From the NCBI GenBank assembly GCA_019307135.1, contig JAFDKF010000003.1:978-64977 (forward strand): DNA of 64,000 nucleotides, in the 5' to 3' direction. The position numbers and the translations under genes were made by a program. Origin of the DNA: Deltaproteobacteria bacterium (GTDB taxonomy: Bacteria; Desulfobacterota; Desulfobacteria; Desulfobacterales; C00003060). Of this stretch, positions 5,801 to 22,833 are shown piece by piece. The notes under the pieces were generated by a model. That model was given only the letters and a program-made list of their open reading frames with translations, was not told where the DNA came from and did no database searches. Position 1 is the stretch's first letter, and every line of letters begins with the position of its first letter.

Positions 5801-6528
5801 TCAGCGATCCGGTCAAGCGCGGTTCGGCATCCTTCCGCCAGCAGACCCAGCGTAAGCTCACCGACCTCAAGAAGGAATTCCTGAAATTGTACCTAAGCTT
5901 GCACACCAAGGCTCGGCTTGGGGTAAATGAGGACAAGAGAAAAGCAGCCCTTACTACTGATGCCCGACTTGAAACGCTTAAGAAACTCGTCACGGTTGAC
6001 CTGATGCCTCGACAACAATTAATAGATTTTCAAGAAAGACTGAATAAGCTTCAAAGCTGCTTCGCACTCACCGAGCAAGAACTGGATGCTGCGCCCGTCT
6101 GCCCGCACTGCAATTATAAGCCCGCAGCGGAGCCATCGACGGCCAAGGCAAGCACACTTCTCGATGGTCTGGACGACGAACTCGACACCCTGGTAGCGAA
6201 CTGGACACAGACGCTCCTGACCAACCTGGAGGACCCGACCACCAAGGGCAATCTGAACCTGCTAAAGACCGAGCCAAAAAAATTGGTGAACGGCTTCATC
6301 AAGAAACGTTCCCTGCCTGACAAACTTGACCAAAATTTCATCCGTGCTTTGAGTGAAGTGCTTTCAGGTCTTCAGAAGGTTCCGATTAAGATCGCAGACT
6401 TACGGGCAGCGTTGTTATCCGGTGGTTCACCGGTTACACCTGCGGAGATGAAGCAGCGGTTTGAGGATTACCTTGACGAGCTAATCAAAGGAAAAGAGCC
6501 TGAGAAAGTCAGGATTATCCTGGAATAA
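2887..6528 (+). CDS. brxC: BREX ATPase BrxC/PglY
   Basis: 1213 aa with an N-terminal Walker [14 protein letters not shown]. Length and operon position are typical of BrxC/PglY. Confidence 0.75.
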
Positions 6529-6539
6529 GGACTCAATCG

Positions 6540-7715
6540 ATGAAGAAAAAATCAAAGAGATTACCAAAATCAAAGGATAGCCTTTTTGATCGTGTCGTAA
6601 CCATTCTGGAGCAAGCACGAACTAATGTTGTTCGTACCGTTAATAGCGAAATGGTGCTCGCCTACTGGCAGATCGGACGGGAGATCGTCCAGGAGCTTCA
6701 AAAGGGTGAGAATCGGGCTGAGTATGGCAAGCAAATTATTAAAGACCTTTCTGCAAAGTTGAATAAAAAATACGGAAGAGGATTCTCTTCAACAAATCTA
6801 TGGTATTTCAGGCAGTTCTATGTTGTGTACTCAAATCGGGAACCCAAGATTCGCCACAAGGCTTGTGGAGAATTGGTTTCCATGGAAAAACTCCACAAGC
6901 CTTGTGGAGTTTTGGATGATTTGAGCTTGGCAGTTGAAAAAAGTGAAGCCCTCCAAGGATTTTCACCACTATTAAGCTGGTCGCACTATCGCACATTGAG
7001 CAAGGTTGAGCATAAAAATGAACGTCTATTTTATGAGATTGAAGCCGAGAAAGAGGGCTGGAGCGTTCCTGTTTTGGAGCGGCAGATTCACTCTTTTCTT
7101 TTTGCGCGACTTCTGAAAAGCAGAGATAAAGACGGAGTTCTTGAGTTAGCAAAAGAAGGACAAGTTATAAAAACCCCGACCGATAGCATGAAAGATCCTT
7201 ATATCCTGGACTTTCTTGGTTTGCCTGATTCTAAGCAGATTCACGAATCAAAACTGGAATCTGCAATTATAGACAACATTCAGTCATTCCTTCTGGAGTT
7301 GGGAAAAGGCTTTGCTTTTGTCGCCCGACAAAAACGTCTTCAGTACGAAGACGAATTTTTGTATGTCGATCTTGTTTTTTATAACTGCATTCTGAAGTGC
7401 TACCTGCTGATTGACCTCAAGATTGCCAAACTCACCCATCAAGATATCGGTCAGATGGACAGCTATGTCCGCATGTTTGATGACCTTTTCATCGCCAAGG
7501 ATGATAATCCGACTATAGGTCTGATTCTCTGCTCTGAAAAGAACGAGGCCATTGCACGGTACTCCGTGCTTAACGACAGCAAACAGCTCTTTGCATCCAA
7601 GTACATGCTCTATCTGCCCACTGAAGAAGAACTACAGCGCGAGCTGGAGCGGGAACGACGGTTGATTGAAGAGAGACAGCAAGCGGGGGACCAAGGTGAC
7701 CAAGATAGTGACTAA
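6540..7715 (+). CDS. DUF1016/YhcG-like PD-(D/E)xK nuclease-family protein inserted between brxC and pglXI
   Basis: 391 aa. The N-terminus VVRTVNSEMVLAYWQIGREIV...YGKQIIKDLSAKL...FSSTNLWYFRQFY and the C-terminal YVDLVFYN...LLIDLKIAKL (D..D-x-K) resemble the YhcG family. It is AT-richer than the flanking BREX genes. Confidence 0.6.
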   Translation: MKKKSKRLPKSKDSLFDRVVTILEQARTNVVRTVNSEMVLAYWQIGREIVQELQKGENRAEYGKQIIKDLSAKLNKKYGRGFSSTNLWYFRQFYVVYSNREPKIRHKACGELVSMEKLHKPCGVLDDLSLAVEKSEALQGFSPLLSWSHYRTLSKVEHKNERLFYEIEAEKEGWSVPVLERQIHSFLFARLLKSRDKDGVLELAKEGQVIKTPTDSMKDPYILDFLGLPDSKQIHESKLESAIIDNIQSFLLELGKGFAFVARQKRLQYEDEFLYVDLVFYNCILKCYLLIDLKIAKLTHQDIGQMDSYVRMFDDLFIAKDDNPTIGLILCSEKNEAIARYSVLNDSKQLFASKYMLYLPTEEELQRELERERRLIEERQQAGDQGDQDSD

Positions 7716-7770
7716 GGTTTTTGCTATTCTGGTTATGGAAGCGGCAGAGTTCAGATGAAAGAGAATAAGA

Positions 7771-10638
7771 ATGGCAAAACGTAAACAAACTTCAAGACCT
7801 TCTGAAAAGCTCTTTGCCGATGATCAAAGAGATCTATTTGAGAAGTCCTATGAAGAGCGGCTTAAGGAAGAAAAGAATAGGCCAGTGGAATGTCTCGGCA
7901 TGACCTTTGAGAACGACGAGAAGCGCCGGGAGTATTTCCTGGAGAAGCTACGCGAGAAGCTCAAGGACCCGGAGTTCCGCAAAATCGAGGGTTTCCCCAT
8001 TGGCTCGGACGAGGACATCCTGGCACTCTCTGATCCGCCGTACTACACGGCCTGCCCGAACCCGTTCATCGAGGATTTCATCAAGCAGTACGGAAAGCCG
8101 TATGACCCGGCTACCGATGATTATCGCCGTAAGCCCTTTGCCGCGGACACGGGCGCAGGGAAGACGCATCCCATCTACATGGCGCACTCGTACCATTCAA
8201 AGATTCCGCATCTGGCAATCATGCCCTGCATTCTGCATTACACCGAGCCGAGTGACATCGTGTTCGATGGATTTTCCGGTTCGGGGATGACAGGCGTTGC
8301 CGCCCAGTTGTGCGGACAGCCGGAGCCGGAGTTCAAGGCGTTACTGGAGAAGGATTGGAAGGATGCGGGCTATGGGGCGCCACAATGGGGTGTTCGCAGG
8401 CCGATACTGATGGATCTGTCACCCGTCGCTAATTTCATCGGGTACAACCTCAATCTTGCCCTTTCCGCCAGGGAGTTCAAAAAAGCCGGCCAGGCTTTTT
8501 TCAAGCAAATAGACGAAGAACTCGGCTGGATGTATGAAACGCTCCACACCGACGGCAAAACCAAGGGGCGTATCAACTATGTCGTCTGGTCGGAGGTCTT
8601 CACCTGCCCCAATTGCACTGGTGATGTGGTCTTCATGGAGCAGACCTACGATGCCAAGAGCGGGAAATTCACCAAGGAATACGAATGCCCGCACTGCAAG
8701 TCAGAAATGACCAACCGTAGTGCTGAACACAAGCTCACCACGCATTTTGACAAGGCCATCGGTGAAACCGTCCGCACCGTAACCTATCAGCCTGTCGAGA
8801 TCGAATACACGATTAGCGGAAACAAGGCCAAACACCGCAAGAAGCTCGACTCGGCGGACTTGGCTCTCATTGAAAGACTCAGGAACGAATTGCCCAAGGA
8901 CCGGTTCCCTTCCCAACCCATACCCGAGGAAATCTATCACTACTCGCGTCTTGAGCCGAAGGGCGTGACACATTTCCACCATTTCTATCTTCCCCGCGCT
9001 TTGCATGCACTTTCTGTCATGTGGCGTATTGCCGGGGAATGGCCAGATTCACGACTGCGAGGATTCTTAAAGTTTATGGTGGAGCAATGCTTTTGGGGCT
9101 TCTCTCTTTTAGCGAGATTCGTGCCGAGCCATTTCTCGCAGGTGAATCAATACCTCCCCAATGTCTACTATATTCCGCCATGCGTTGTTGAGATTTCGCC
9201 TTGGTACATATTGGATGGTAAGATCAAGCGTCTTCTAAAAATGCTCAAAGCTGAACAGCTTCCGCAATCATCTTACTTTTCCCAATCCACCACCTCGTCA
9301 TTGCAAACACCGATTCCCGATAGCAGTGTCGATTATGTCTATACCGACCTTCCCTTCGGCGACTTCGTGCCTTATGGCGATCTCAATCTGCTCATTGAAT
9401 CGTGGCACCAGGTGTTTGCCAATTTGCAGCATGAGGTTCTCGTTGATAAAAAACGGCAGAAAGCGGTGGATAAGTACGGTGTCATGATGAAGGAGGCATT
9501 TAGTGAACTCTACCGCATTATGAAGCCAAGTCGGTGGTCAACCATTGTTTTCCACAACTCGAAGAATGCGATCTGGAATGTCCTGCAAGATGCAATCGGC
9601 TCCGCCGGTTTCGTGATTGCCGATGCGCGAACCATGGACAGGGGCACAGGAAGTTACCGGCAATACACGGCTCAGATGGCAGTGAAGGCGGATGTCATTA
9701 TCTCCGCGTACAAACCGAATGGTGGACTCGAAGAGCGGTTCAAGCTTGAGGCCGGAACCGAGGACGGCGTCTGGGATTTCGTCCGCACGCACTTAAAGCA
9801 GCTCCCGATCTTCGTTTCCAAGGACGGACAGGCTGAAGTTATTGCCGAACGCCAAAACTACCTGCTCTTCGATCGAATGGTGGCATTTCACGTCCAGCGC
9901 GGTGTGACGGTTCCCGTGTCCGCCGCTGAGTTTTACGCGGGGCTTGAGCAGCGCTTTCCGCCACGTGACGGGATGTACTTCCTTCCAGACCAGGCGGCAG
10001 AGTATGACAAGAAGCGCATGACGGTGAGAGAGGTGCTCCAGCTTCAGCTTTTCGTCTCCGATGAAGCATCGGCCATCCAGTGGCTCAAGCAGCAGCTCAC
10101 CAAGAAACCGCAGACCTTCCAGGATATCCATCCGCAGTTCCTGAAAGAGATCGGCGGCTGGCAGAAGCATGAGAAGGCCCTGGAGCTTTCCGAACTGCTG
10201 GAACAAAACTTCCTGCGTTATGACGGCAAGGGCGAGGTTCCCAGCCAGATTCACAGCTACCTTTCCTCGAACTTCAAGGAGTTGCGCAACCTATCCAAGG
10301 ACGATCCTGCGCTCAAGGCCAAAGGCAAGGACCGCTGGTACGTGCCCGACCCGAACAAGGCTGGTGATCTGGAAAAGCTGCGCGAGCGGGCCCTGATGCG
10401 CGAGTTCGAGGAGTACCTGCCTGCGCCGAGGCTTCGGCAGGCAGGCCGTGAATCGAAACAGAAACGTCTGAAGGTGTTCCGTTTGGAGGCGGTTCGCTTT
10501 GGTTTCAAGAAGGCGTGGCAGGAGCGCGACTACGCAACTATCATCGCCGTGGCCTGCAAGATACCGGAAAAGATTCTCCAGGAGGACCCCAAACTCCTTA
10601 TGTGGTACGACCAGGCACTCACAAGGACAGGAGGTTGA
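7771..10638 (+). CDS. pglX: BREX type 3 DNA methyltransferase PglXI
   Basis: 955 aa. It has LSDPPYYTACPNPF, the SAM-binding FDGFSGSGMTGVAA, and a later YTDLPFGDF motif. It sits between brxC and the SNF2-like helicase. Confidence 0.7.
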   Translation: MAKRKQTSRPSEKLFADDQRDLFEKSYEERLKEEKNRPVECLGMTFENDEKRREYFLEKLREKLKDPEFRKIEGFPIGSDEDILALSDPPYYTACPNPFIEDFIKQYGKPYDPATDDYRRKPFAADTGAGKTHPIYMAHSYHSKIPHLAIMPCILHYTEPSDIVFDGFSGSGMTGVAAQLCGQPEPEFKALLEKDWKDAGYGAPQWGVRRPILMDLSPVANFIGYNLNLALSAREFKKAGQAFFKQIDEELGWMYETLHTDGKTKGRINYVVWSEVFTCPNCTGDVVFMEQTYDAKSGKFTKEYECPHCKSEMTNRSAEHKLTTHFDKAIGETVRTVTYQPVEIEYTISGNKAKHRKKLDSADLALIERLRNELPKDRFPSQPIPEEIYHYSRLEPKGVTHFHHFYLPRALHALSVMWRIAGEWPDSRLRGFLKFMVEQCFWGFSLLARFVPSHFSQVNQYLPNVYYIPPCVVEISPWYILDGKIKRLLKMLKAEQLPQSSYFSQSTTSSLQTPIPDSSVDYVYTDLPFGDFVPYGDLNLLIESWHQVFANLQHEVLVDKKRQKAVDKYGVMMKEAFSELYRIMKPSRWSTIVFHNSKNAIWNVLQDAIGSAGFVIADARTMDRGTGSYRQYTAQMAVKADVIISAYKPNGGLEERFKLEAGTEDGVWDFVRTHLKQLPIFVSKDGQAEVIAERQNYLLFDRMVAFHVQRGVTVPVSAAEFYAGLEQRFPPRDGMYFLPDQAAEYDKKRMTVREVLQLQLFVSDEASAIQWLKQQLTKKPQTFQDIHPQFLKEIGGWQKHEKALELSELLEQNFLRYDGKGEVPSQIHSYLSSNFKELRNLSKDDPALKAKGKDRWYVPDPNKAGDLEKLRERALMREFEEYLPAPRLRQAGRESKQKRLKVFRLEAVRFGFKKAWQERDYATIIAVACKIPEKILQEDPKLLMWYDQALTRTGG
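10416..10445. repeat. 30-nt palindromic element embedded in frame in pglXI (copy A)
   Basis: cctgcctgcgccgaggcttcggcaggcagg is the exact reverse complement of 15839-15868. It forms a 9-bp outer stem plus inner pairs and encodes LPAPRLRQAG. Confidence 0.85.
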
Positions 10639-10642
10639 TTCC

Positions 10643-13345
10643 ATGCTTATAGAAGTCATAACTGAGCTAAACGCTCCTAATACAGACAAGGGGAATCTAT
10701 TAGAAAACCTCGCTTCTGAATTTCTTAGGACGCAAGGTTATGAGGTGTCTTCTCAGGTTCGTGTTGCTGCATCTGAACTGGATTTGCTGTGCGAGCACAA
10801 GGTGTCAAAAAAACAAATATATGTAGAATGTAAAGCCCATAAAGATAATCTATCTGCCAAAGTTCTAGTCAATCTTCTTGGCACTGTTGATCTACACGAA
10901 TACTCGGAAGGATGGCTCGTAAGCACAGGCCCTTTGGGGCGAGATGCTAAAGGCTTTGTTGAAAAATGGGAGAATAAGCCTCCAGAAAAAAGGGAAAAAC
11001 TCTCCATATATAGTCCTGATCGTATATTGAATGCATTGTTAGACGCTAAAATAATCTCTTCAAAACCGGAATCTAAAGCGCAAGAAATGCTTTCTGGTCA
11101 TGATTTATCACTGGGCAAATGGATTTTGCTCATAACTCCATGGGGCAAATATTGGACCTGCCCGGTTTTAAAGGCTGGAGTGCCTAAATTCACCTCCTTT
11201 TTTGATGCATTGAATGGAAAGCCAGTAACCGATGAAGAATTCATTGATCGAGTTAAGTTAACTGATTTCAGTTTGAAAAATCTAGAGCCATTTGTCGCGT
11301 CAAGCCACGACGCACGTCAGGGAAATGACAATGCAGGGGGCGCTAAGTCCACTGCTGTTGTCGAGGTAGAATATGGCGAGAAGTGGTTTGACTATCGCCC
11401 AGCCAGACCGGAGCATTTTGTTGGTAGAAAGAATGAGCAACGAGAGCTACTGCAGTTTTTCACAAACATAAAGAATGGGAAAACGAACACACGCGTTTTT
11501 GCTATAAAAGGTGACTCTGGGATTGGAAAGAGTTCCTTGATTGCAAGGATACGTGATGTTACCAACAAGAGCCAAAAGCCAAACAACCTTTTTCTGTATG
11601 CAGTTGATGTTCGAGCTGCTAATGATTCTTCATACATCTATTCATCATTACTGGCAGCCCTTCGATCTGCTTCGCTGGATGGATTTGGAAGCAAGGAAGA
11701 ATTCGAGGTTACAGACTACATCGATCCTTTACAGAGCGAATCAATCAAATCTTTCTTAGACGGGTGTGAACGGAAACGCGAGATAGTAATTATTGTCTTC
11801 GATCAATTTGAGGAACTCTACTCAAAGGCTGAGTTGTTTTCTGTATTTGAAGAGGTCAAGAAACTGATGTTCTCTACTATTGCAGCATCTTCCAGTATTG
11901 TTCTTGGTTTTGCATGGAAAACAGATAGTACTGTCCCCCAGGATCACCCAGCTTATCATATGTGGCACCAATTGTCGGATCATCGATTTGAGATACTACT
12001 AAAGCCATTCAGCCACTCCGATGCTGAACAATCTCTCAGAATATTTGAGAACGAGTTGGGCGAAAAAATCCGTCCTGAACTTAGAAAGTACCTTTTAGAG
12101 AATAGCCAAGGATATCCTTGGCTTCTGAAGAAATTGTGTATTCATTTTTACGAACAACTACGGAGTGGTATAAGCCAACAGCAAATGGCAAACCGGTCAT
12201 TAGACATCTCTTCCTTATTTGACCAAGACTTGAATCATTTAACTGATGCTGAAATGGTGTGTTTAAAATTGGTAGCACAGAACGCCCCAATGGATTGGTA
12301 TGAAGTTCTTGAAATTGCTGGTCATGAAGTCGTTCAGTCTCTGCAAAACAAACGTGTACTGATTAAGCATGGGGATAAGCTTAACCTCTATTGGGACATA
12401 TTCAAAAATTATGTTTTATCTGGGATAATTCCATCGATTCCATTTACATATATTCCCCAATCACCATCGCTTAATGCATTATTGCATGTTTCATTAGAGC
12501 TTGATGATGCCGAAGGTAAGTCTATCAAAGAGTTGGCAGACAGTTCAAAACTTCAAGAGAGTACTGTTAGAAATATTATTCACGACTTGGAGCAATTTGG
12601 GGTTATTTATATCTCCAAAAGCGACATTACGATTGATAATCACCTGAGTAATTTAAATGCAAGGTCAATTCTATCTAGTATTAGACTGGTATTTAAGAGA
12701 CACGCACTTACTGAGATTTTAAAGAAAAACAATAGTGTAAAACCAGCCAATACAGATCAATTAATAAACTATCTAAAATCTATAAATCCTACAGCACAAT
12801 ATCATATTCGAACATGGACTACATATTCCAAAAGGATGTCTGCGTGGCTTCATGCATTTGGATTGATTACACAAACTACTAGTGGAATTATATATTCAGA
12901 TATTGGGGACATTGCTGGTGACGATATTAAAAAGTGGAGTGGTGAACGCAAACGAATAGTTTTCCTTGGAGATACATCACCTGTAAAAGTTGTGGAAGCA
13001 CTAGATCTTTTAAAAATGGGCGCAAAGGCACAAGTGAGCATGAAAAATATGGGATACCGTAATGCATGCGCCGTATTATATCGGTTCCGACTGTTAGAAC
13101 TAACTACGGCAGGCGAATATCGTGTTCCTGAGTGCAATATTACTGGTCGTTCATCGATGGAAGCTGTATGGGAAGAAGCCAGTAAAGAAGAGTCTCTCAA
13201 GCTGGTTATAAATAAACTCAAGGAAGGTACATTAATAAAACCACTGCAAATTGGGGAATTTGTTGCCGAGAGTTTCGGCAGGACCTGGAAAAAACTTCAT
13301 GGAAACGAATCGGGAATAGCCTTTGCCAATGGGCATTGTGGCTGA
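10643..13345 (+). CDS. Mrr-like restriction-endonuclease domain fused to a P-loop STAND/AAA-type NTPase and wHTH-like C-terminal region (BREX-embedded cargo 1)
   Basis: AGGAGG (10629-10634) sits 8 nt before the ATG at 10643. The N-terminus has GYEV...SELDLLCEH...IYVECK...WLVSTG (D-ExK, Mrr_cat-like). The centre has FVGRKNE...FAIKGDSGIGKSSL (Walker A) and IVIIVFDQFEEL (Walker B). The region is markedly AT-rich; a spot count on line 12361 gave 19/60 GC. Confidence 0.65.
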   Translation: MLIEVITELNAPNTDKGNLLENLASEFLRTQGYEVSSQVRVAASELDLLCEHKVSKKQIYVECKAHKDNLSAKVLVNLLGTVDLHEYSEGWLVSTGPLGRDAKGFVEKWENKPPEKREKLSIYSPDRILNALLDAKIISSKPESKAQEMLSGHDLSLGKWILLITPWGKYWTCPVLKAGVPKFTSFFDALNGKPVTDEEFIDRVKLTDFSLKNLEPFVASSHDARQGNDNAGGAKSTAVVEVEYGEKWFDYRPARPEHFVGRKNEQRELLQFFTNIKNGKTNTRVFAIKGDSGIGKSSLIARIRDVTNKSQKPNNLFLYAVDVRAANDSSYIYSSLLAALRSASLDGFGSKEEFEVTDYIDPLQSESIKSFLDGCERKREIVIIVFDQFEELYSKAELFSVFEEVKKLMFSTIAASSSIVLGFAWKTDSTVPQDHPAYHMWHQLSDHRFEILLKPFSHSDAEQSLRIFENELGEKIRPELRKYLLENSQGYPWLLKKLCIHFYEQLRSGISQQQMANRSLDISSLFDQDLNHLTDAEMVCLKLVAQNAPMDWYEVLEIAGHEVVQSLQNKRVLIKHGDKLNLYWDIFKNYVLSGIIPSIPFTYIPQSPSLNALLHVSLELDDAEGKSIKELADSSKLQESTVRNIIHDLEQFGVIYISKSDITIDNHLSNLNARSILSSIRLVFKRHALTEILKKNNSVKPANTDQLINYLKSINPTAQYHIRTWTTYSKRMSAWLHAFGLITQTTSGIIYSDIGDIAGDDIKKWSGERKRIVFLGDTSPVKVVEALDLLKMGAKAQVSMKNMGYRNACAVLYRFRLLELTTAGEYRVPECNITGRSSMEAVWEEASKEESLKLVINKLKEGTLIKPLQIGEFVAESFGRTWKKLHGNESGIAFANGHCG

Positions 13346-13451
13346 TGGCTCCTACAAATTCTGGAGGCCATATTCCAACTCCTCCAGGGCGTAAAACGAA
13401 CTCACAAGATAGTTCGCAACAAAGCTTGTTTGAGTTTTTTGGAGATGATAA

Positions 13452-13712
13452 GTGATAGAGTGTTGGCAGTATAGCACCATTCACGATTTCGTCTGCAAGG
13501 TTATCGAAACCCAGACGTTGTGGGACGATTCAACCTGCCGCGTCTGGCTGCCCGGTTCGGACTCCGTGGTGCGTATTCCGGCGGCCAATCTTAAACCGCT
13601 TGAGGACGCAACCAACATCGCCGTGGCACGCAAGATTCCAGAGAAGATTCTCCAGGAAGACCCCAAACTTCTAATGTGGTATGATCAGGCGGTAACAAGA
13701 ATGGGAGAGTAA
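13452..13712 (+). pseudogene. Fossil junction: brxHII 5' fragment fused in frame to a pglXI 3' fragment
   Basis: Residues CKVIETQTLWDDSTCRVWLPGSDSVVRIPAANLKPLED parallel the BrxHII N-terminus (CKVIESQTLWGETTCRVWIPGSDSLVRVPASRLSPLED, 15302-). Residues IAVARKIPEKILQEDPKLLMWYDQAVTRMGE parallel the PglXI C-terminus (IAVACKIPEKILQEDPKLLMWYDQALTRTGG, ending at 10638). Confidence 0.8.
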
Positions 13713-13715
13713 AAA

Positions 13716-14756
13716 ATGATAGAAGAAATCAAATTCGAAAATTTTACAGCCTTTAAGAAACTAAGAATCGAATTTTCACCTGGCATCAACATTTTTGTCG
13801 GAAGTAATGGGACGGGAAAAACCCATATTCTGAAAACTGTGTATGCGTCATGTGATATAACGAAATCAAAAAAGAACTTTGCTGAAAAAATATTACGGGT
13901 GTTTATGCCTTCAGCCAGCCAGCTTGGTAGATTGGTAAAACGCCAAAAGGTTAGCGCCAGAGGTTCTGTTGAAGTATTCCGTTCCGGTCCTGGCCTATTA
14001 GACACCGCAAAACTTCGCCTCTCTTTTTCCAATCATGCAACAAAAATAAAATCGGCCACCATTATCGGTGCGAACAATTGGTGCGCTATACCAATTGAAT
14101 CTGTATTTATTCCGGTTAAAGAGATGCTTTCCAACGCGCCTGGGTTTCACTCGATGTATAGCTTACGTGACGTTCATTTTGAAGAAGTGTACGCAGATAT
14201 TATTGACCGTGCTCTTTTGCCGCTTATGCGTGGGCCAGCGGATCGGGATCGAAAGAAGATATTATCGCATCTGCAAAAAGCAATGGAGGGCAAGGTCACA
14301 GTTAAAAACGAGGAGTTTTTTCTGCGAAATATACAGGGCAATCTTGAATTTTCTCTCCTTGCGGAAGGTATTCGAAAACTTGGTTTGCTTTGGGTCCTGA
14401 TCCAAAACGGCACATTACTAAAAGGGACAGTATTCTGCTGGGATGAGCCGGAAGCTAATCTAAATCCTAAGCTATTTCGGAATATTGTTGAGATTCTCTT
14501 AAGTCTTCAACGAATGGGCGTGCAAATATTCATTGCAACCCATGACTACGTTCTTCTAAAGGAATTCGATCTGCAAAAACAAGATAATGACAAGGTAAAA
14601 TTCCACTCTCTCTATCGTGATGAGGTAAGCAAAGAGATAAAAGAGCATCATACAGAAGATTATCTGCAAATTCATCCTAATACTATCCAAGATACTTTCA
14701 TTGATCTCTTTGACCGTGATGTAAAGCGTGACCTGGAGCTTTCAGCCAATGAATAA
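13716..14756 (+). CDS. ABC/SMC-type (AAA_21-like) ATPase (BREX-embedded cargo 2, gene A)
   Basis: 346 aa. Motifs are FVGSNGTGKTH (Walker A), LAEGIRKLGLL (signature-like), VFCWDEPEANLNP (Walker B/D-loop) and IFIATHD (H-loop). It starts 4 nt after the fossil pglXI stop. Confidence 0.7.
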   Translation: MIEEIKFENFTAFKKLRIEFSPGINIFVGSNGTGKTHILKTVYASCDITKSKKNFAEKILRVFMPSASQLGRLVKRQKVSARGSVEVFRSGPGLLDTAKLRLSFSNHATKIKSATIIGANNWCAIPIESVFIPVKEMLSNAPGFHSMYSLRDVHFEEVYADIIDRALLPLMRGPADRDRKKILSHLQKAMEGKVTVKNEEFFLRNIQGNLEFSLLAEGIRKLGLLWVLIQNGTLLKGTVFCWDEPEANLNPKLFRNIVEILLSLQRMGVQIFIATHDYVLLKEFDLQKQDNDKVKFHSLYRDEVSKEIKEHHTEDYLQIHPNTIQDTFIDLFDRDVKRDLELSANE

Positions 14757-15300
14757 GATGAAGATGCGAGAGGTCATTGAATCAGGCTTCAAGGTCACCC
14801 TATCCGAGGAGAACAGTTTCCGGTTTTGTGAAAGCTCTGCTTATCAGAGTCTTTCCGGCCTTAGCTTGAAAGAGATGGATGTCGGCTGGTGGAACACTAC
14901 CAATAGTAAGCTGTTCCTCCTTGAACTGAAGGGCCAAGAAATTTGGCGAGAATTCGACAAATCCGAAGACTTTGCCTACAAACACCTTGTGACAGCTATC
15001 AAGGGAAAGGTGACCGACGTTCTTTTGATGTTGGCCGCTGTCTGGGTTAAGACAGGTATTGGAAATGAGCTTAAAGCTCACATTCCTAACCCTGTTCATC
15101 AATATCGGGGAGAGGGCAGCATCAAGTTCATCTTTCTTATCGATACACCAGCCTCACGTCAATCCCTGCTGCTGCCGGTAAAGGATGCCATCAACAAGCA
15201 ACTCGCCGGACGGGTACGTCTTTTTGGCGTAAAGCATGTCACTCTGATCAATTTTGATGTAGCTCAAAAGATGGGGCTTCCCATAGAGAGACAGGCGTGA
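14749..15300 (+). CDS. Small protein with a PD-(D/E)xK-like motif (BREX-embedded cargo 2, gene B)
   Basis: The ATG at 14749 overlaps the ATPase stop (14754-14756), giving about 183 aa. It contains KEMDVGWWNTTNSKLFLLELKG (D...ExK spacing). Its stop at 15298-15300 is 1 nt before the brxHII ATG. I recognise no family with confidence. Confidence 0.5.
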   Translation: MNKMKMREVIESGFKVTLSEENSFRFCESSAYQSLSGLSLKEMDVGWWNTTNSKLFLLELKGQEIWREFDKSEDFAYKHLVTAIKGKVTDVLLMLAAVWVKTGIGNELKAHIPNPVHQYRGEGSIKFIFLIDTPASRQSLLLPVKDAINKQLAGRVRLFGVKHVTLINFDVAQKMGLPIERQA

Positions 15301-15301
15301 A

Positions 15302-18124
15302 ATGGACGTTGGCGACTGGTACTACACCCCCGACTACGGGCAGCTCTGTAAAGTCATCGAGTCCCAGACGCTTTGGGGCGAGACGACGTGCAGGGTGTGG
15401 ATACCCGGCAGTGATTCCTTAGTCCGTGTGCCTGCATCCAGACTCTCCCCCCTTGAGGATTCCGGGACGGGCACCGCTGATAGCATCGCCTATGTCGCCG
15501 CTGCTGCTCGGGTAGCCGATGCCCTGACCCAGGATATGCTTCTCGCGCCGATTGAATCATCTGTCATCCCGCTGCCACACCAGATTCGGGCGCTGTCCCG
15601 AGCCATCGCAGGTGACCGTGTGCGCTACCTGCTTGCCGATGAGGTAGGCTTGGGGAAGACCATCGAGGCCGGACTCATTCTGCGTGAGCTCAAGCTGCGC
15701 GGGCTGGCCAAGCGAACATTGGTTATCGCTCCAAAGGGCCTGGTGACTCAATGGGTGGCCGAGATGCGTACTCACTTTAACGAGGACTTTCGGCTGCTCA
15801 TCCCAAGCGATTTCTCGGCCTATCGACGCATCGCCAAACCTGCCTGCCGAAGCCTCGGCGCAGGCAGGGAGGACAACATCTGGCAGAGCCATCCGCAGGT
15901 GGTCTGTCCCATGGATTCGGTCAAGCCGCTGGAAAGTCGTCGCGGATGGTCGGATAAGCAGATGGCCGAATACAACCAGGAGCGGTTCGAGGACCTGATC
16001 TCCGCCGGCTGGGATCTGATTGTTGTGGACGAAGCCCACCGGCTCGGCGGCAGTACCGACCAGGTTGCCCGGTTCAAGCTGGGCCAGGGGCTTTCTGAGG
16101 CTGCACCGTATCTCTTGCTACTGTCGGCAACCCCTCACCAGGGTAAGACCGATGCTTTCCATAGGCTGGTATCTTTGATCGATAATCAGGCATTTCCTGA
16201 CGTGGGCAGCGTCACGCGGGATCGGGTCCAACATTATGTGATCCGGACCGAAAAGCGACGTGCTATCACGGCTGAAGGCAAGCCACTCTTCAAACCTCGT
16301 AAGACAGAGCTTGCTGCGGTCTCCTGGGAGGATCGGCATCAGGACCAGCGGCAGCTCTACGATGCGGTCACAGAGTATGTGCGGGAAGGTTACAACCAGG
16401 CCATGCGCGAGAAGCGCAGCTATATCGGGTTCCTCATGATCTTGATGCAGCGACTTGTAGTTTCCAGCACTAGCGCCATCCGCACTACGCTGGAACGCAG
16501 GCTGGATGCGCTTGAAGCACCGCAGGAGCAGCTGAGTCTATTTCCCATGTATTCCAACGAGGAATGGGCTGACCTTGACGGTCAGGAGCAAGTCGAAACG
16601 CTTCTGATCACTCGCCTGAAAGCGCTCAAAAACGAACGTGCCGAAGTAAAGCTGCTTCTCAATGCCGCCACCCGTTGCGAACAGGCGGGGGAGGATGTCA
16701 AGGCAGAGGCCCTGCTCGACTGGCTCTACCGTCTGCAGGCCGATGAAAACGACCCTGAACTGAAAGCCCTGGTATTCACCGAGTTTGTGCCGACCCAGCA
16801 GATGCTTCAGCAGTTCCTTTCTGAGCGTGGCTTTCCGGTTGCCTGCCTCAACGGCTCAATGGACATGGATGAGCGCAAAAAGGCCCAGGATACCTTTGCC
16901 GGGGAGGCACGCATTCTCATCTCTACCGATGCAGGCGGCGAGGGTCTGAATTTGCAGTTTTGCCACGTGGTGATCAATTACGACATTCCCTGGAACCCGA
17001 TGCGGCTTGAACAGCGCATCGGCCGGGTGGATCGTATCGGCCAAAACCATGTGGTGCGCGCCGTTAATTTCGTTTTTGAGGATTCGGTGGAGCACCGTGT
17101 ACGGGAAGTGCTGGAGGAGAAGCTTGCGGTTATCTTCGAGGAGTTCGGTATCGACAAGACGGGTGACGTACTCGACTCGGCCCAGGCTGGACAAATCTTT
17201 GATGACTTACATGTGGAGGCCATCCTCAACCCGAATGAGATCGACACATCTGTGGACAAGGTCATCGCTCGTTTGCAGGAACAGGCCCGAGATGCGAAGG
17301 CGAGTTCATCTGTCCTGGGAGCCACAGAGGACCTGGAACCATCTGAAGCCCAACGACTTATGACCCACCCCTTACCACACTGGGTCGAACGGATGACAGT
17401 GAGCTATCTTAATGCTCACGGCGGCAAAGCTGAGCGGAAACGACGGACCTGGGACTTGACGTGGCCGGACGGCGAAACAACTGCCAAGGTCGTCTTCAGC
17501 GGCAAGGAAGCAGACCAATCCCCCACAGCCCGCCACTTGACATTGGAGGATTCCAGGGTTCGGGGGCTGGCCACGAGATTGCCTCGTTTTGTTCCAGGGC
17601 AGCCGATCTCCGTTGTCACAATCCCAGGGATCACCGACGAGGTTACTGGCCTATGGTCTCTCTGGCAGATCGGCATCACAACGATGGAATGGAATCGCCA
17701 CCGGATCATGCCTTTATTCATAGCTGATGGCGGGAATATTTTTGCCCCAGCCGCCAGGCATCTCTGGGACAAGCTTTTGGGTGTGACGCCTAATGTCCGG
17801 ACGCATCTTGACATGGACGAATCCAAGGAAGCCTTCGATAGACTGGCAGGGATTGCAGAAGAGCAAGGACGAACCATCTACGATGAGCTTGTTCAAGAAC
17901 ACCGGTCGCGTCTGACCCGAGAAAGAGAAAAAGGGGAATATGCCTTCGCTGCCAGGCGTAGTGTCATCGAACGAGTCGGCCTTCCCCAGGTACGCGACCA
18001 TCGGTTGACCCTCCTGCGGCAGGAAGAGCAAGCGTGGAACGAGGATCTTAAGCTGAAAGCACAAGTGTATCCGGAAATGGTGCCTCTTATCGTTATCCGC
18101 GTGGAAGGAGGTGCCAATGAGTAG
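15302..18124 (+). CDS. brxHII: BREX type 3 SNF2/DEAD-like helicase BrxHII
   Basis: 940 aa with LLADEVGLGKT (motif I), VVDEAHRLG (DEAH), LSATPHQGK, LISTDAGGEGLNLQ and EQRIGRVDRIGQ (motif VI). Confidence 0.75.
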   Translation: MDVGDWYYTPDYGQLCKVIESQTLWGETTCRVWIPGSDSLVRVPASRLSPLEDSGTGTADSIAYVAAAARVADALTQDMLLAPIESSVIPLPHQIRALSRAIAGDRVRYLLADEVGLGKTIEAGLILRELKLRGLAKRTLVIAPKGLVTQWVAEMRTHFNEDFRLLIPSDFSAYRRIAKPACRSLGAGREDNIWQSHPQVVCPMDSVKPLESRRGWSDKQMAEYNQERFEDLISAGWDLIVVDEAHRLGGSTDQVARFKLGQGLSEAAPYLLLLSATPHQGKTDAFHRLVSLIDNQAFPDVGSVTRDRVQHYVIRTEKRRAITAEGKPLFKPRKTELAAVSWEDRHQDQRQLYDAVTEYVREGYNQAMREKRSYIGFLMILMQRLVVSSTSAIRTTLERRLDALEAPQEQLSLFPMYSNEEWADLDGQEQVETLLITRLKALKNERAEVKLLLNAATRCEQAGEDVKAEALLDWLYRLQADENDPELKALVFTEFVPTQQMLQQFLSERGFPVACLNGSMDMDERKKAQDTFAGEARILISTDAGGEGLNLQFCHVVINYDIPWNPMRLEQRIGRVDRIGQNHVVRAVNFVFEDSVEHRVREVLEEKLAVIFEEFGIDKTGDVLDSAQAGQIFDDLHVEAILNPNEIDTSVDKVIARLQEQARDAKASSSVLGATEDLEPSEAQRLMTHPLPHWVERMTVSYLNAHGGKAERKRRTWDLTWPDGETTAKVVFSGKEADQSPTARHLTLEDSRVRGLATRLPRFVPGQPISVVTIPGITDEVTGLWSLWQIGITTMEWNRHRIMPLFIADGGNIFAPAARHLWDKLLGVTPNVRTHLDMDESKEAFDRLAGIAEEQGRTIYDELVQEHRSRLTREREKGEYAFAARRSVIERVGLPQVRDHRLTLLRQEEQAWNEDLKLKAQVYPEMVPLIVIRVEGGANE
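15839..15868. repeat. 30-nt palindromic element embedded in frame in brxHII (copy B, inverted relative to copy A)
   Basis: cctgcctgccgaagcctcggcgcaggcagg is the reverse complement of 10416-10445. Here it encodes PACRSLGAGR. Confidence 0.85.
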
Positions 18125-20123
18125 CTGGCGCGACCAGATTCTCAAGGAGTTCACTCCAAAGGTGGCCCGTTTGACCCTGGTGGCAGATCCCGACGGACTT
18201 CTCCTGGAGGAAGGGATTCTTGAAGGAATACGCGAGCGGGGCTTTGAATTGATCCCATTCGAGGATCACGTTGCCTTCCGATATGCCTATGAAACCAAGT
18301 TCCGTTCCCGCTGGGACAAGGGAGAGCAGACGGATCTGGTCGTCGCACTTCGCTCAGGAGCCAGCGATCTTGGTTCCTTGCCGTACGATCTGCTTCAAGC
18401 TGGTCGCCGGTTATCCTTCAACCTTGGAGAGATATTTCCAAACTTGAGCTATCCGGTGATAGCCGCCTTGGACCGCGGAGATCTTGAGGCGCTTTTTGAT
18501 GCCCAAAAACGACATGCACCCGGTGTCTTGGGCGACAATGCTAGCAAAGAGTTCGTTCTGCGGCATGTCTTCGAGATCGCGCCTGAATTGATCAGAAAGC
18601 CGTCTGATCTGCTTCGCGTGCTGCTACGCCGCCATTACCGTGAACAGCGCATCCCGACGATTCTGGATGAACGTTTCATCCAGGTCCTTAGCCAGAACGA
18701 CGGCTTTGAAGGGTGGCCGCTCGATTCCATCATCCCGGACCGAGAAGCGTTTTTCGCCTTTCTCCAGGAACGCTGGCCCATTTTTCTCGACCGGTCGGCA
18801 AAACAAAATGGTTCAGAGATCAGCGAGAAAAAGAAAGCCTATGGGCTTGAATTTTCGGGTCCCTCGGGCTTGCCTTTTGACCACGATGATATCCGTGTCT
18901 ACATTGACAATCTGTTCCTTGAAGGATTGCTTCAAGCCGTTTCCCATAAGCGAGCCGATTCTCTGTCCAAAACCTGGCTCGCAATTGGCATCCGTACCGA
19001 TGAGCAGGCAGATCGAACGCGTCGCGTGAATGGCCTGCTTGACAATATAGCGTCCACCATCCCGAAAGAGGATACGCGGCATGATGACTGGTTTCACTTT
19101 GCCAAAACATGGGCAGAGCTTATGGCGCTTGTTTTGGAACCGGAGTCGGCGTTGCCCGAACCGGCCCATCAAAGGATCCAATCCCTACAAACCAAAATTG
19201 ATGCCGTGCTTGTGACCTGGCTGAAAAAGCGATACGCAGGACTGTTCAATCTGCCGCCGGTACCGCCAGTCATGCTTCACCACATTCCCCGATTCCTCGC
19301 CCGATACATCGGTAATGCCAAGGAAAACAGGGTCGCATTCATTTTGGTGGATGGGCTTTCGCTTGATCAGTGGATCGTCATACGCAAGGCCCTTACTCAA
19401 CAACGCCAAAGATATCGATTCCGCGAAACCGCGGTCTTCGCCTGGATACCGACAATCACATCCGTCTCACGCCAAGCCGCCTTTGCCGGCAGACCGCCTA
19501 TTTACTATCCTAACAGTATCCATACCACGGATAAAGAATCCGTCCTGTGGACGCAATTCTGGGTAGACCAGGGCCTGACACAACATGAAGTCATATACGC
19601 TAAGGGATTAGGCCACGGCCCTCTTAACAACGTTGAAGAGTTGATTGCAAACCCAAAGATACGGGTTGCCGGTCTGATCGTAAACAAAGTGGATAAGATC
19701 ATGCATGGTATGGAGCTCGGTGCAGCGGGAATGCATAATCAGATTCGACAATGGGCTTTACAGCCGTTCATGACGAATCTTATAGAACTGCTTTTAAACA
19801 ATAGATACCGTATCTACCTGACATCGGACCACGGAAATGTGGAGGCTGTCGGATGTGGCCGTCCTGCTGAAGGAGCGGTTGCGGATTTACGCGGTGAGCG
19901 CGTACGAATTTATTCCAATTCTATCCTTCGTGGTCAAATCAAGGATCGCTTTCCGGATGCTCTAGAATGGCCCCCTGTAGGTCTGCCGGAAAACTATTTG
20001 CCTTTACTTGCCCCAGGCCGCTCAGCATTTGTTCGTGAAACAGAACGCCTTGTCGGCCACGGCGGTATTTCCCTGGAAGAGGTCGTCGTCCCTCTCGTTC
20101 AAATCGAAATGGGGGTCGCATGA
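18117..20123 (+). CDS. pglZ: BREX alkaline-phosphatase-superfamily protein PglZ
   Basis: About 668 aa with FILVDGLSLDQW and YLTSDHGN motifs. The ATG at 18117 overlaps the brxHII stop (18122-18124). Confidence 0.75.
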   Translation: MSSWRDQILKEFTPKVARLTLVADPDGLLLEEGILEGIRERGFELIPFEDHVAFRYAYETKFRSRWDKGEQTDLVVALRSGASDLGSLPYDLLQAGRRLSFNLGEIFPNLSYPVIAALDRGDLEALFDAQKRHAPGVLGDNASKEFVLRHVFEIAPELIRKPSDLLRVLLRRHYREQRIPTILDERFIQVLSQNDGFEGWPLDSIIPDREAFFAFLQERWPIFLDRSAKQNGSEISEKKKAYGLEFSGPSGLPFDHDDIRVYIDNLFLEGLLQAVSHKRADSLSKTWLAIGIRTDEQADRTRRVNGLLDNIASTIPKEDTRHDDWFHFAKTWAELMALVLEPESALPEPAHQRIQSLQTKIDAVLVTWLKKRYAGLFNLPPVPPVMLHHIPRFLARYIGNAKENRVAFILVDGLSLDQWIVIRKALTQQRQRYRFRETAVFAWIPTITSVSRQAAFAGRPPIYYPNSIHTTDKESVLWTQFWVDQGLTQHEVIYAKGLGHGPLNNVEELIANPKIRVAGLIVNKVDKIMHGMELGAAGMHNQIRQWALQPFMTNLIELLLNNRYRIYLTSDHGNVEAVGCGRPAEGAVADLRGERVRIYSNSILRGQIKDRFPDALEWPPVGLPENYLPLLAPGRSAFVRETERLVGHGGISLEEVVVPLVQIEMGVA

Positions 20124-20935
20124 ACGTACGGGCAAGCCAAATCGGGTTCAGCCAACGCATCCGCCTTGAATGGCTTGAACAGACAGCTAACCTTGTATTG
20201 GCTGGAAACGATAAAACTGAAATCAACGATTCTCTCCAGGAACTGCTGAAGAATAAGGTCTCCATCGGAGGTGAAGCCATCCGGGGCAATCGAGAGAAGG
20301 TCATCTCCATCCTTATGAAGACATGGCTCACCGTACCCCGCGGCTTGGAAGCACTCCGCGATGAAGGCTTGCAGATACATCAGGGGCTGCCTCGTAAAGA
20401 CCGCATTGCTGTTCACTGGGGCATGGCATTGGCCGCTTATCCGTTCTGGGGTGCGGTCGCCGCGCACACCGGTCGCCTGCTGCGACTTCAGGGAACGGCT
20501 GCGGCAGCCCACGTTCAGCGTAGAGTTAAAGAACAATACGGAGAGCGCGAAACCGCCTCCCGGGCAGCCCGGCGTGTCTTAAGGTCATTCATCGACTGGA
20601 ACGTCCTGAATGAGACGGATGATAAAGGCGTATACGCCCAGGGTATTCGCTATTCGATTCAAGACCCCAGGCTCATTTCCTGGATGGTGGAGGCGTCTTT
20701 GCACGCCCGCGCAAACGGTTCCGCCGCCACCAAAGACTTACTCGATGGCCCAAGTATATTTCCCTTTCGCCTGGCGCACATCACTGCAGAGCACTTGGCA
20801 TCTTTATCGCCTCGTCTGGACTTATTACGGCACGGCTTGGATGAGGATCTGATGATGCTGAGACAAAGAGACCGGCAAGTGAACGGAAAGACAAAGGAGT
20901 TTGAGGGTGGTCCATGGGCAAACGCAAAATCATAA
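20120..20935 (+). CDS. BREX-associated protein in the brxA position (BrxA-like, positional call only)
   Basis: 271 aa with an ATGA overlap with the pglZ stop. It is the last gene of the operon, where type 3 BREX carries brxA. I cannot verify a DUF1819 signature by eye. Confidence 0.4.
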   Translation: MNVRASQIGFSQRIRLEWLEQTANLVLAGNDKTEINDSLQELLKNKVSIGGEAIRGNREKVISILMKTWLTVPRGLEALRDEGLQIHQGLPRKDRIAVHWGMALAAYPFWGAVAAHTGRLLRLQGTAAAAHVQRRVKEQYGERETASRAARRVLRSFIDWNVLNETDDKGVYAQGIRYSIQDPRLISWMVEASLHARANGSAATKDLLDGPSIFPFRLAHITAEHLASLSPRLDLLRHGLDEDLMMLRQRDRQVNGKTKEFEGGPWANAKS

Positions 20936-21768
20936 GACGCCGAAAAATTCCAAAAGTGACTTGCTCTGATATTCTCGGAGATCACCCTACTGACTGTCAT
21001 CCTTTGGGTGTTTTACTCACTGCGTCAGATGGATCGACCGAAAGTGGGGTTCCTCACAGGACACTTTCAGAATGCACTGGCCAAAGAAAAGCCATCGTTG
21101 AATGTGTTCGCGAAATGCTGGTTCAACATCATGTGAGTCCGGAAGCTTTGGAACGGGACAGACAAAGACGTGAGGCAATGCAACGCTTGGGATTTGAAGA
21201 TGATCAGTCTCGCATGAAGCGTTTTCCAACGAATCCAACAACACAAAAAGGTAATCTCGCGGAAGTCTTACTGGCAGAATATATTGCTGCTGCAAATGAA
21301 GTTTCTTTGCCTGTCTATCGTCTCAGGTACAATCCAAATGTTGAACAGGCAATGAAAGGTGATGATGTACTCGCTTTCGATTTGGACTCCGATCCTGTAC
21401 GGGTGATTGTCGGGGAATCGAAATTCCGAACAATATCTTCAAAAGCTGCTGTGATTGATATTGTTGAAGGTCTGGTTCGTTCATATAAGGGCGGTATCCC
21501 AGCATCATTGCAGTTTGTAGCGGATCGATTATTTGAGACGGGCAAAGCTGGTCTTGGCGAACGAATTCTTGAATGCGCAACCTTGTTCGCACTGGAAAAG
21601 CTACAGCTTGAATATGTTGGGCTGTTGATGAGTGATACCCGCACTGCGAACAGAATGAATCAGCACACGGTTAATTCCTTTCATCGACTTGCGGTAATTT
21701 CATTTGGCCTGGATTCGCCGGGCTCAATTGTTGATCCCTGTTTTAAAGGCTTGGAGGAATGCAAATGA
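20914..21768 (+). CDS. hamA: HamA-like (DUF1837-type) PD-(D/E)xK protein of a Hachiman-like module
   Basis: 284 aa with QKGNLAEVLLAEY...GDDVLAFDLD...VIVGESKF. It has a 4-nt overlap with the following helicase-N-terminus ORF, matching the hamA-hamB order. Confidence 0.5.
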   Translation: MGKRKIIRRRKIPKVTCSDILGDHPTDCHPLGVLLTASDGSTESGVPHRTLSECTGQRKAIVECVREMLVQHHVSPEALERDRQRREAMQRLGFEDDQSRMKRFPTNPTTQKGNLAEVLLAEYIAAANEVSLPVYRLRYNPNVEQAMKGDDVLAFDLDSDPVRVIVGESKFRTISSKAAVIDIVEGLVRSYKGGIPASLQFVADRLFETGKAGLGERILECATLFALEKLQLEYVGLLMSDTRTANRMNQHTVNSFHRLAVISFGLDSPGSIVDPCFKGLEECK

Positions 21769-22734: not shown

Positions 22735-22833
22735 CCTACAGTCGCCGCGCCGTTAGGCCGACCAACAACATTGTGGATGTGCAATTGTAAAGTTGGTGGT
22801 TGGCGTGATCCAAGAGCTTTGGGAGGAAACACA

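Follow-up and report, generated by a model that had tools for sequence, protein, structure and literature searches.

A fused brxHII-pglXI gene fragment between two cargos of a type 3 BREX operon: a probable recombination scar and what it suggests about cassette exchange

Genes for additional defence functions are known to be embedded between the core genes of bacteriophage exclusion (BREX), DISARM, type I restriction-modification and Hma operons, and the catalogue of such embedded genes is the source of the HEC-02 and PDC families (Payne et al., bioRxiv 10.1101/2024.01.29.577857). In that work the origin of the embedding was left open, with only the idea of a 'genomic sink' being put forward; systems with pseudogenes were excluded, and the words recombination, remnant and hotspot are absent from its main text. 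The DNA considered here is a stretch of 64,000 nucleotides from a Deltaproteobacteria bacterium of the Desulfobacterales (assembly GCA_019307135.1, contig JAFDKF010000003.1, positions 978 to 64,977 of the forward strand; the whole of it is called the window below). It contains a type 3 BREX operon in which a short chimeric open reading frame (ORF), at 13452-13712, lies between two cargos. On the comparison of its sequence with related loci, this ORF is very probably a recombination scar that joins a locus in which cargo 1 preceded brxHII to a locus in which HEC-02 followed pglXI, the join being at a microhomology of 4 nt.

Type 3 BREX was reportedly described by Goldfarb et al. in 2015, and its gene order is said to be brxF-brxC-pglXI-brxHII-pglZ-brxA. 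Homology-facilitated illegitimate recombination (HFIR), reportedly set out by de Vries and Wackernagel in 2002, is said to combine a homologous anchor with a join at a microhomology of a few nucleotides, foreign DNA being added beside the anchor. Cassettes are switched at capsule and O-antigen loci, and at defence hotspots that have core genes on either side, by homologous recombination in the conserved flanks. The N-terminus of BrxHII is a Tudor domain and BrxHII is present in 77% of type 3 systems, according to the passages on type 3 BREX of a recent paper (NAR 2026, PMC12839542).

The chimeric open reading frame and its junction

The ORF has 86 codons and a GTG start. A sequence-only reading had taken it for an in-frame fusion of a brxHII start to a pglXI end, and BLASTP against the two intact genes of the window bears this out. 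Residues 5-53 of its product match BrxHII residues 6-54 with 30 of 49 identical (E 2e-21), much as the earlier estimate of about 60% over some 50 codons had it, and residues 53-85 match PglXI residues 922-954 with 29 of 33 identical (E 8e-17), where 26 of 31 had been counted by eye. Both pieces are truncated, the head corresponding to residues 1-52 of the 940 of BrxHII and the tail to residues 922-955 of the 955 of PglXI, and both parents are intact nearby. In DNA alignments both halves have diverged, as had been supposed of the tail, and the tail is markedly closer to its intact counterpart than the head is; they are therefore diverged copies and not the outcome of a recent duplication. The features immediately involved are listed here (numbers such as L094 denote loci used for comparison).

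7771-10638, + strand: pglXI methyltransferase (PADLOC PglXI, E 0)
10534-10638, + strand: pglXI tail (last ~100 nt), the left arm, conserved across phyla
10643-13455 in the original frame, the called ORF ending at 13345, + strand: cargo 1, Mrr-STAND (Pfam Mrr_cat, AAA_16, nSTAND1)
13452-13609, + strand: head part of the scar, brxHII codons 1-52 (BLASTP and DNA alignment with BrxHII)
13606-13609, + strand: junction microhomology ACGC, common to the L094 parental head and the pglXI tail
13606-13712, + strand: tail part of the scar, last 34 codons of a second pglXI and its stop (BLASTP and DNA alignment with PglXI)
13716-14756, + strand: cargo 2, HEC-02A ABC-type ATPase (PADLOC HEC-02A, E 2.9e-130, full length)
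14749-15300, + strand: cargo 2, HEC-02B small partner (PADLOC HEC-02B, E 1.2e-39; 8 nt overlap with HEC-02A)
15302-18124, + strand: intact brxHII (PADLOC model PDLC02500, named BrxHI/BrxHII, E 0)

The sequence preceding the chimera, 13346-13451, is the out-of-frame 3′ end of cargo 1 and not intergenic spacer. The GTG of the chimera overlaps the original cargo 1 stop, TGA at 13453-13455, with a GGAG located 8 nt before it, and the chimera stop adjoins the start of cargo 2. A cargo start 4 nt after the stop had been claimed for both copies of the pglXI end; this is so for the real pglXI (TGA ttcc ATG, 10636-10645), but at the fossil copy the spacing is 3 nt (TAA aaa ATG, 13710-13718).

It had further been proposed that two related type 3 loci with different cargos were joined, and loci with only one of the two cargos do exist. 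HEC-02A/B is alone between pglXI and brxHII in L023 (67% protein identity to the window) and HEC-02A is alone in the slot of L057, while cargo 1 directly follows pglXI in L061 (68%), the pglXI tail and cargo 1 of the window being colinear with that locus. Cargo 1 of L094 has after it the unusual head that is seen in the window too (VIECWQYSTIH...), and there this head goes on as BrxHII (…PLEDAAIPQSGTGITYVAAAARV…) up to codon ~80, where it meets a different break. Since the L094 head runs past the junction, L094 represents the pre-fusion state and reveals the 4-nt microhomology: ACGC is present both in its parental head (GAGGACGC followed by CGCAAT) and in the pglXI tail (TACGC followed by AACC), a short match at 13606-13609 that joins otherwise unrelated sequences and is of the kind reported for HFIR. 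On the other side, window positions 13606-15777 are colinear with L023 positions 4868-7018, from 104 nt before the pglXI stop via HEC-02 into brxHII, and homology to the real pglXI tails of both L023 and L057 begins exactly at the junction, 13606. Homology to a parent is found in this way for each half of the fusion, and together with the single-cargo relatives it supports the joining of two loci.

The event may be pictured as follows. An ancestral type 3 BREX locus A would have had cargo 1 (Mrr-STAND) directly 5′ of its brxHII, and an ancestral locus B would have had HEC-02 directly 3′ of its pglXI. A single illegitimate crossover mediated by the ACGC microhomology would have joined codon ~52 of the first brxHII to codon -34 of the second pglXI, and would have been completed either by a homologous crossover elsewhere in the shared core or by deletion between adjacent loci, the product being pglXI, cargo 1, head::tail, cargo 2 and brxHII in that order. 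A version confined to one chromosome, in which type 3 BREX loci came to lie in tandem by duplication or adjacent acquisition and a deletion then ran from brxHII codon ~52 to pglXI codon -34, is possible if on balance somewhat unlikely. It yields exactly the observed topology with a microhomology junction, and partial tandem duplications of core genes do occur, with two full pglXI genes in L068 (937-6461) and two brxHII genes in L108 (395-5839). As expected from a fusion, the left half of the window (PglXI 53-63%) and its right half (BrxHII/PglZ 91-93%) also differ in their affinity to loci of the L009-L013 type. However, no two complete tandem type 3 BREX systems were seen among 170 loci, and the same product is reachable by HFIR with incoming DNA, the data fitting both routes.

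The arrangement is not an assembly artefact, as it is reproduced in independent metagenomes. An identical ORF is present on three contigs, and the two of these that were examined (L092 and L093, from two Joint Genome Institute metagenome samples) keep the same neighbours; L086, an unrelated European Nucleotide Archive contig from another study, has a 92%-identical copy of cargo 1 plus the chimera. The data are metagenomic, and conserved heads and tails are repeats able to mislead an assembler into joining the BREX loci of two strains at shared sequence, but the junction here joins non-homologous sequences illegitimately, which assemblers do not do, and the same junction also occurs in L091. 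With these independent occurrences the probability of an assembly chimera is next to nil.

Exchange at the pglXI-brxHII slot

From 10624 to 13605, a span that takes in the end of pglXI (~15 nt), cargo 1 and the head, the window is ~92% identical to L086, and the head part taken by itself is ~93-95% identical, as is cargo 1, with which it was co-inherited. Upstream of 10624 the two pglXI genes are ~70-80% identical in the tail and unalignable in the body, and downstream of the scar L086 has a Ppl cargo in place of HEC-02. From the junction onward the fossil tail and Ppl of L086 are colinear (84%) with the real tail and Ppl of L088, which is consistent with the tail arriving with the downstream cargo. 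The series fossil tail, Ppl, AlbA partner and real brxHII head in L004 is colinear (74%) with the series real tail, Ppl, AlbA partner and fossil head in L088, and thus one tail-cargo-head unit is second in one stack and first in another. L091 is identical to the window at 80 of 81 nt over 13538-13618, across the junction; its outer head is 51-71% identical to that of the window and matches the intact brxHII head plus upstream cargo of L033, its downstream cargo is Ppl, and so both neighbouring cargos differ from those of the window. The ancestral junction has therefore persisted while the flanking cargos were replaced via crossovers inside the scar head and tail. Comparison of these loci shows tail-cargo-head units shared between loci with unrelated surroundings, and scars that evidently were reused as crossover sites. 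The fossil tail of the window finds its best DNA match (93%) in the real tail of L010, a locus with a Ppl-like cargo and not HEC-02, the real tails of the HEC-02 loci L023 and L057 being 85-87% identical to the fossil tail; tails have therefore been exchanged again after the event, and there is no simple donor to point to.

Substitution patterns bear on what travelled with what. Between the window and L086, synonymous divergence (dS) is 0.23 for cargo 1, with a ratio of non-synonymous (dN) to synonymous divergence, omega, of 0.23, and it is 0.25 for the scar head with omega 0.14 (7 synonymous versus 4 non-synonymous changes). For the distal scar tail dS is ~2.0 and dN 0.025, and the tail has therefore diverged long ago under protein constraint, within working pglXI genes; it came with the downstream cargo. 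Because the synonymous sites of the tail are saturated, the arms give no indication that the DNA itself is under selection, and they seem to be a by-product of strong protein conservation. The dN/dS ratio was also considered as a test of function of the head and set aside, since its omega is not decisive, being based on 11 changes of which 7 fall in the 40 nt that precede the junction; in those 40 nt the window resembles L091 and not L086, the region being mosaic. At the other border of the slot, the intact brxHII of the window has, in its first ~180 nt, 60-83% DNA identity to close relatives against 86-94% for most of the rest, and dS is 0.85-1.15 in the head against 0.33-0.54 in the body, a two- to threefold difference that fits the head travelling with cargo. 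This difference, the colinear units, and the presence of the same junction with different cargos in L086 and L091 all favour the earlier suggestion that the flanks act as homology arms.

When one genome per species was scanned with a profile of the PglXI tail, 511 matches were obtained, of which the best 80 loci were analysed, and with metagenomes, where tail matches exceeded 524, 160 loci were retrieved across the genome and metagenome sets. The best 80 span Thermodesulfobacteriota, Acidobacteriota, Bacillota, Actinomycetota, Nitrospirota, Rhodothermales and others. In the 43 loci with both genes the gap between pglXI and brxHII is 80-8789 bp, with a median of 2633, and it is essentially empty in only two; 20 of 63 loci are without an intact brxHII, and there 91-6429 bp separate pglXI from pglZ. 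ORFs of at least 90 aa in the slot, taken from ~65 non-redundant loci (the 43 with brxHII, loci without it, look-up loci and the window), number 154 and form 75 cargo clusters. They match AriA/OLD-like ATPases, Ppl with a Schlafen/AlbA_2-HATPase partner, HEC-02, HEC-03, HEC-05, a cyclase with a two-transmembrane (2TM) effector of the cyclic oligonucleotide-based antiphage signalling system (CBASS), and PDC-S19, S28 and S68, and several representatives match nothing. L009, L010, L012, L026 and L013 have BrxHII-PglZ-BrxA 91-93% identical to those of the window, yet all carry different cargos; their PglXI is only 57-62% identical to that of the window where most of the gene is present, and the C-terminal PglXI fragments of L009 and L026 are ~80% identical. 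The pglXI/brxHII junction is accordingly the variable hotspot it had been suspected to be, and its description as an exchangeable cassette slot is in agreement with all the checks that were run. The gap between brxC and pglXI is variable too (-48 to 6426 bp). In L062 a fossil brxC 3′ end (residues 1181-1213) is present at 5982-6080, after the brxC-pglXI cargo of that locus, and the same kind of scarring therefore seems to occur in the brxC-pglXI slot.

The window operon itself is complete, with brxF, brxC, pglXI, brxHII, pglZ and brxA in order on one strand from 2376 to 20935 (PADLOC, E 5.7e-75 to 0). Its remaining features are these.

2376-2852, + strand: brxF, left core (PADLOC BrxF, E 5.7e-75)
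2887-6528, + strand: brxC, left core (PADLOC BrxC, E 0)
6540-7715, + strand: cargo of the brxC-pglXI slot, PDC-S02 / DUF1016-YhcG PD-(D/E)xK nuclease (PADLOC PDC-S02, E 4e-141; Pfam YhcG_C, DUF1016_N)
18111-20123, + strand: pglZ, right core (PADLOC PglZ, E 0)
20120-20935, + strand: brxA, right core (PADLOC BrxA, E 4.8e-103)

Three low-G+C inserts, the PDC-S02 nuclease (G+C 0.41-0.44 against 0.52-0.58 for the core), cargo 1 and cargo 2, are nested in the operon, and PDC-S02, Mrr-STAND and HEC-02A/B, all between core genes and all on the + strand, are of known or candidate defence families. Cargo 2 has the two-gene layout of HEC-02, an ABC-type ATPase (A) then a small partner (B), and by its profile matches is a HEC-02 candidate defence module. 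Cargo 1 has a Mrr_cat restriction-endonuclease-like domain plus a STAND/NACHT-like NTPase (Pfam). Its frame is broken by a 1-nt deletion in a run of A (A6 at 13289-13294 versus A7 in L086), after which the last ~55 codons are out of frame; the intact orthologue in L086 is of 937 aa. The frameshift is probably real because the same truncated ORF of 900 aa is also called on a contig from another sample (L092), and it could be due to inactivation, to phase variation in the run of A, or to a C-terminal shortening that is tolerated. Codons ~180-210 of the window BrxHII (15840-15930; alignment columns 540-630) have ~60% identity to relatives where ~90% is found elsewhere, a segment that appears to be a local replacement or insertion. 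Lying directly 3′ of brxA are a HamA-domain protein (20914-21768; Pfam E 2e-17), a 308-aa ORF without clear family (21759-22685) and an Exo_endo_phos protein (22771-23637); the ORFs of 20914-23637 may be extra defence cargo appended to the operon, and no HamB-like helicase was seen with them.

The tail that borders the slot on its left also appears to carry the signals for expression of what follows. Of 187 tails, whether real or fossil, 171 have a GGAG-type (Shine-Dalgarno-like) motif within their final 18 nt, with the next ATG either overlapping the tail stop or no more than 8 nt from it. In the window AGGAGG at 10629-10634, in the last pglXI codons, is the predicted ribosome-binding site for cargo 1, and GGGAGAG at 13703-13709 is that for cargo 2, so the codons for the PglXI C-terminal '...TR.GGE' double as the predicted ribosome-binding site of the next gene. 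With a Shine-Dalgarno sequence and stop/start coupling carried by the tail, it is proposed that any cassette arriving with a tail would therefore be expressed in the operon.

The general rule suggested is that a cargo would be exchanged as one unit with the pglXI tail before it and the brxHII head after it. The peptides encoded by these two gene ends, the final ~100 nt of pglXI and the initial ~180 nt of brxHII, are very conserved, and the ends would provide DNA homology between diverged loci, so that host homologous recombination could swap whatever lies between, with crossovers in the conserved tail, in the head, and in the conserved segment just past the head. Stacking would need one illegitimate join, by HFIR with incoming DNA or by deletion between adjacent loci, and once a scar exists its halves would be extra arms, making the cargos on each side replaceable independently. 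The scar is most likely without protein function and would decay over time; an in-frame scar would keep termination at the native pglXI stop by the cargo 2 start and, speculatively, may help coupling.

The fixed position of cargo 3-4 nt past conserved sequence, always in operon orientation, has a superficial resemblance to an integron array, and one might take the chimera for part of the attachment site of a dedicated site-specific system, integron-like or transposon-like. This is very improbable, since all ORFs from brxF to brxA (2376-20935) are accounted for by PADLOC and Pfam and none is a recombinase or transposase, the head-tail junctions differ by locus and are inside coding sequence, and shared modules do not break at a constant position in the heads and tails. 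A repeat-like site was not noticed and there was no match to an RNA family, keeping in mind that no search was aimed at attC-like folds. Host recombination in the conserved gene ends remains the preferred account, and there is a bolder extension of it, doubtful at present, by which type 3 BREX operons may work as recombinase-free cassette arrays, with the pglXI 3′ end and the Tudor-coding 5′ end of brxHII as universal docking arms and with scars and head-only remnants retained as functional linkers. Host recombination could then swap in or stack any tail-cargo-head unit of any other type 3 locus, even one in another phylum, and mini-ORFs might be retained either for translational coupling or as free Tudor-domain proteins; if true, scars would be functional linkers and not junk.

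Scars elsewhere: decay or gene

A protein search with the 86 residues finds in-frame ORFs only, and any count of fusions made with it is biased accordingly. It yielded 249 hits, and nearly all of the best 120 are of 50-150 aa; 20 of these 120 are in-frame BrxHII-head::PglXI-tail fusions, with at least 10 different junctions among them (head residues ~17 to ~70, tails of 18 to ~110 residues). Other short ORFs consist of PglXI tails fused to a P-loop N-terminus, to a 23S_rRNA_IVP-like protein or to a PglXI N-terminus, or are BrxHII heads ending prematurely. A frame-blind genome scan gave five independent head::tail scars, of which four are broken.

L067 scar: intact
L045/L047 scar: frameshifted
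L063 scar: degraded
L068 scar: nonsense codon
L075 scar: frameshifted

The broken L045 scar has the same junction, AAAR followed by KIPE, as the intact scar of L087 and the same downstream PDC-S19, and a metagenome scan adds scars in L095, L096 (two), L098/99, L109 and L159 plus head-only fossils. That scars are mostly broken is the pattern predicted by decay of neutral remnants; the ORF of the window is intact.

For the product of the window ORF, AlphaFold gives a 5-strand barrel at residues 4-49 (strands 4-8, 13-23, 26-33, 38-43 and 47-49, with a predicted local distance difference test score, pLDDT, of 83-86) followed by helices, with an overall pLDDT of 78.5. The top Foldseek matches are Tudor, chromo and PWWP domains, including the Tudor domains of UvrD/PcrA and CarD that bind RNA polymerase, at probabilities of 0.96-0.98 and weak E values (0.046 or above). 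The scar head is thus modelled as a Tudor-like, SH3-like barrel, in agreement with the domain assignment for BrxHII (PMC12839542). Pfam gave no family match to the 86-aa product. Internal promoters and terminators around the scar are no more frequent than in shuffled sequence, and the search for RNA families gave no credible match, the lone hit, to a plant miRNA family at 21 bits versus a gathering score of 50, being attributable to chance.

The complete barrel at a pLDDT of ~85, with its structural matches, raises the alternative that the chimera is a functional small gene kept by selection, supplying a free Tudor-like domain with the PglXI C-terminal helical tail. Such a protein could act on BREX components as a modulator or a bridge, or be a decoy that binds a partner. 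Models aside, the frame is intact with a GGAG upstream, the ORF overlaps the cargo 1 stop and adjoins the cargo 2 start, and the low omega of its head would suit such a role, but the selection signal amounts to 11 substitutions in a mosaic region and the chimera matches no Pfam family. The many in-frame chimeras in the protein database would suit it also, but a protein search can find nothing else, and the frame-blind scan has four of five independent scars broken. Loci without brxHII often keep a head mini-ORF of ~100 codons; against this, the chimeras have no conserved architecture, their junctions being spread over heads and tails of very different length, and PglXI tails are fused to unrelated fragments as well. 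On this evidence a functional gene is improbable.

Diverged ORFs of ~100 aa ending in '...APIESSVIPLDG(GSANG)' before the stop are present in L102 (~2934), L105 (~2844), P0013, P0014, P0022, P0024, P0028, P0036 and P0039. The possibility that ORFs ending in ...VIPLDGGSANG mark mobile-element insertions was considered and rejected: they result from internal deletion of brxHII, with codon ~92 joined to the last ~8 codons just before pglZ, and thus a Tudor-plus-linker mini-ORF persists in a whole lineage of helicase-less type 3 BREX. Different in-frame remnants of a brxHII head plus C-terminus are found in L019, L014, P0018 and P0049. An extreme array in L063 (10228-16536) has no intact brxHII; pglXI is followed there by a 507-aa cargo, the degraded head::tail scar, a 231-aa cargo, a 127-codon brxHII head, three more ORFs (211, 145 and 242 aa), a second head, two small overlapping ORFs of 90 and 132 aa that are arranged as in a toxin-antitoxin pair, and a third head that continues into pglZ. 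The two head::tail scars of L096 (1766-2058, frameshifted in the head, and 3635-4021, intact) are on one contig of 4.5 kb and imply at least three stacked cargo positions. In L001-L003, from Desulfoprunum and relatives, only the C-terminal third of pglXI (641-955) is left and brxHII has an internal deletion (6-236 + 633-938), with two ATPase + AlbA_2/HATPase cargos and a 124-aa scar between; these may be a BREX chassis without methylation and helicase functions that still hosts cargo. L026 has at 2-130, on the minus strand, an inverted pglXI tail fragment (residues ~894-930, 95-98%) that is head-to-head with the real tail at the contig start.

Several points weigh against an origin of the chimera as a now functionless recombination scar, or complicate it. 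The evidence is all comparative, no recombination event having been directly observed, and donor and recipient of the original event are not assignable. One candidate route, a single circular cassette (tail-cargo 1-head) that integrated independently in two loci by crossover in the tail, was rejected when its prediction failed, all four tails, the real and fossil ones of the window and of L086, being ~80% from each other. Faster evolution of the Tudor domain could explain part of the higher divergence of the brxHII head, where dN is raised too. Finally, the head omega of 0.14, the plausible GGAG and the complete predicted barrel make some protein constraint possible.

Comparison with known cassette systems

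The occurrence of similar scars in many other bacteria suggests a way by which nested defence genes come to be gained and exchanged. The scars are a record of how such genes arrive, of where crossovers take place and of what travels together, namely the methylase tail (ribosome-binding site included), the cargo and the helicase head, and they show that cassettes can be stacked and then replaced singly. This would be a testable route by which immune genes could turn over fast with no need of mobile-element machinery. Fossil pglXI tails and brxHII heads can serve as a search key with which to delimit cargo cassettes and find new defence genes, and the arrangement offers a design for placing test genes in the BREX operons of laboratory strains. 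There is also a warning for annotation, since fragments of this kind account for dozens of the 'hypothetical proteins' of 50-150 aa that public databases list.

The gene set and order of the window are the same as those attributed to type 3 BREX by Goldfarb et al. As with the embedded genes of Payne et al. (2024; 10.1101/2024.01.29.577857), cargo is nested between core genes in operon orientation, and HEC-02 and PDC-S02, S19, S28 and S68 are from that catalogue; what is added here is the exchange unit of tail, cargo and head, slot borders at nucleotide level, and scars that record stacking. In the type 3 BREX passages of PMC12839542, BrxHII is missing from about a quarter of systems, compared with 20 of 63 loci here, and those passages do not describe head/tail fusion fossils, cassette stacking or the mini-ORFs left by internal deletion of brxHII. 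A full-text literature search found no description of such scars; embedding is already known, and the exchange unit, the arms and the scars are new as far as the literature searched shows.

Among mechanisms, the 4-nt junction microhomology fits HFIR, a process that for this locus is only inferred. The likeness to integron arrays is in promoterless cargo genes that all point one way, are stacked where a fixed point of entry lies and rely on the host operon for expression, the differences being that there is no integrase among the operon ORFs and that the junctions are variable and inside coding sequence. Closer is the switching of capsule and O-antigen loci, with which the slot has in common variable genes between conserved flanks, dependence on host recombination, mosaic flanks and remnants of former neighbours. 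In contrast to those loci, the flanks here are the ends of two genes inside one defence operon, an incoming gene receives its ribosome-binding site from the left flank, and it is via gene-fragment scars that arrays grow.

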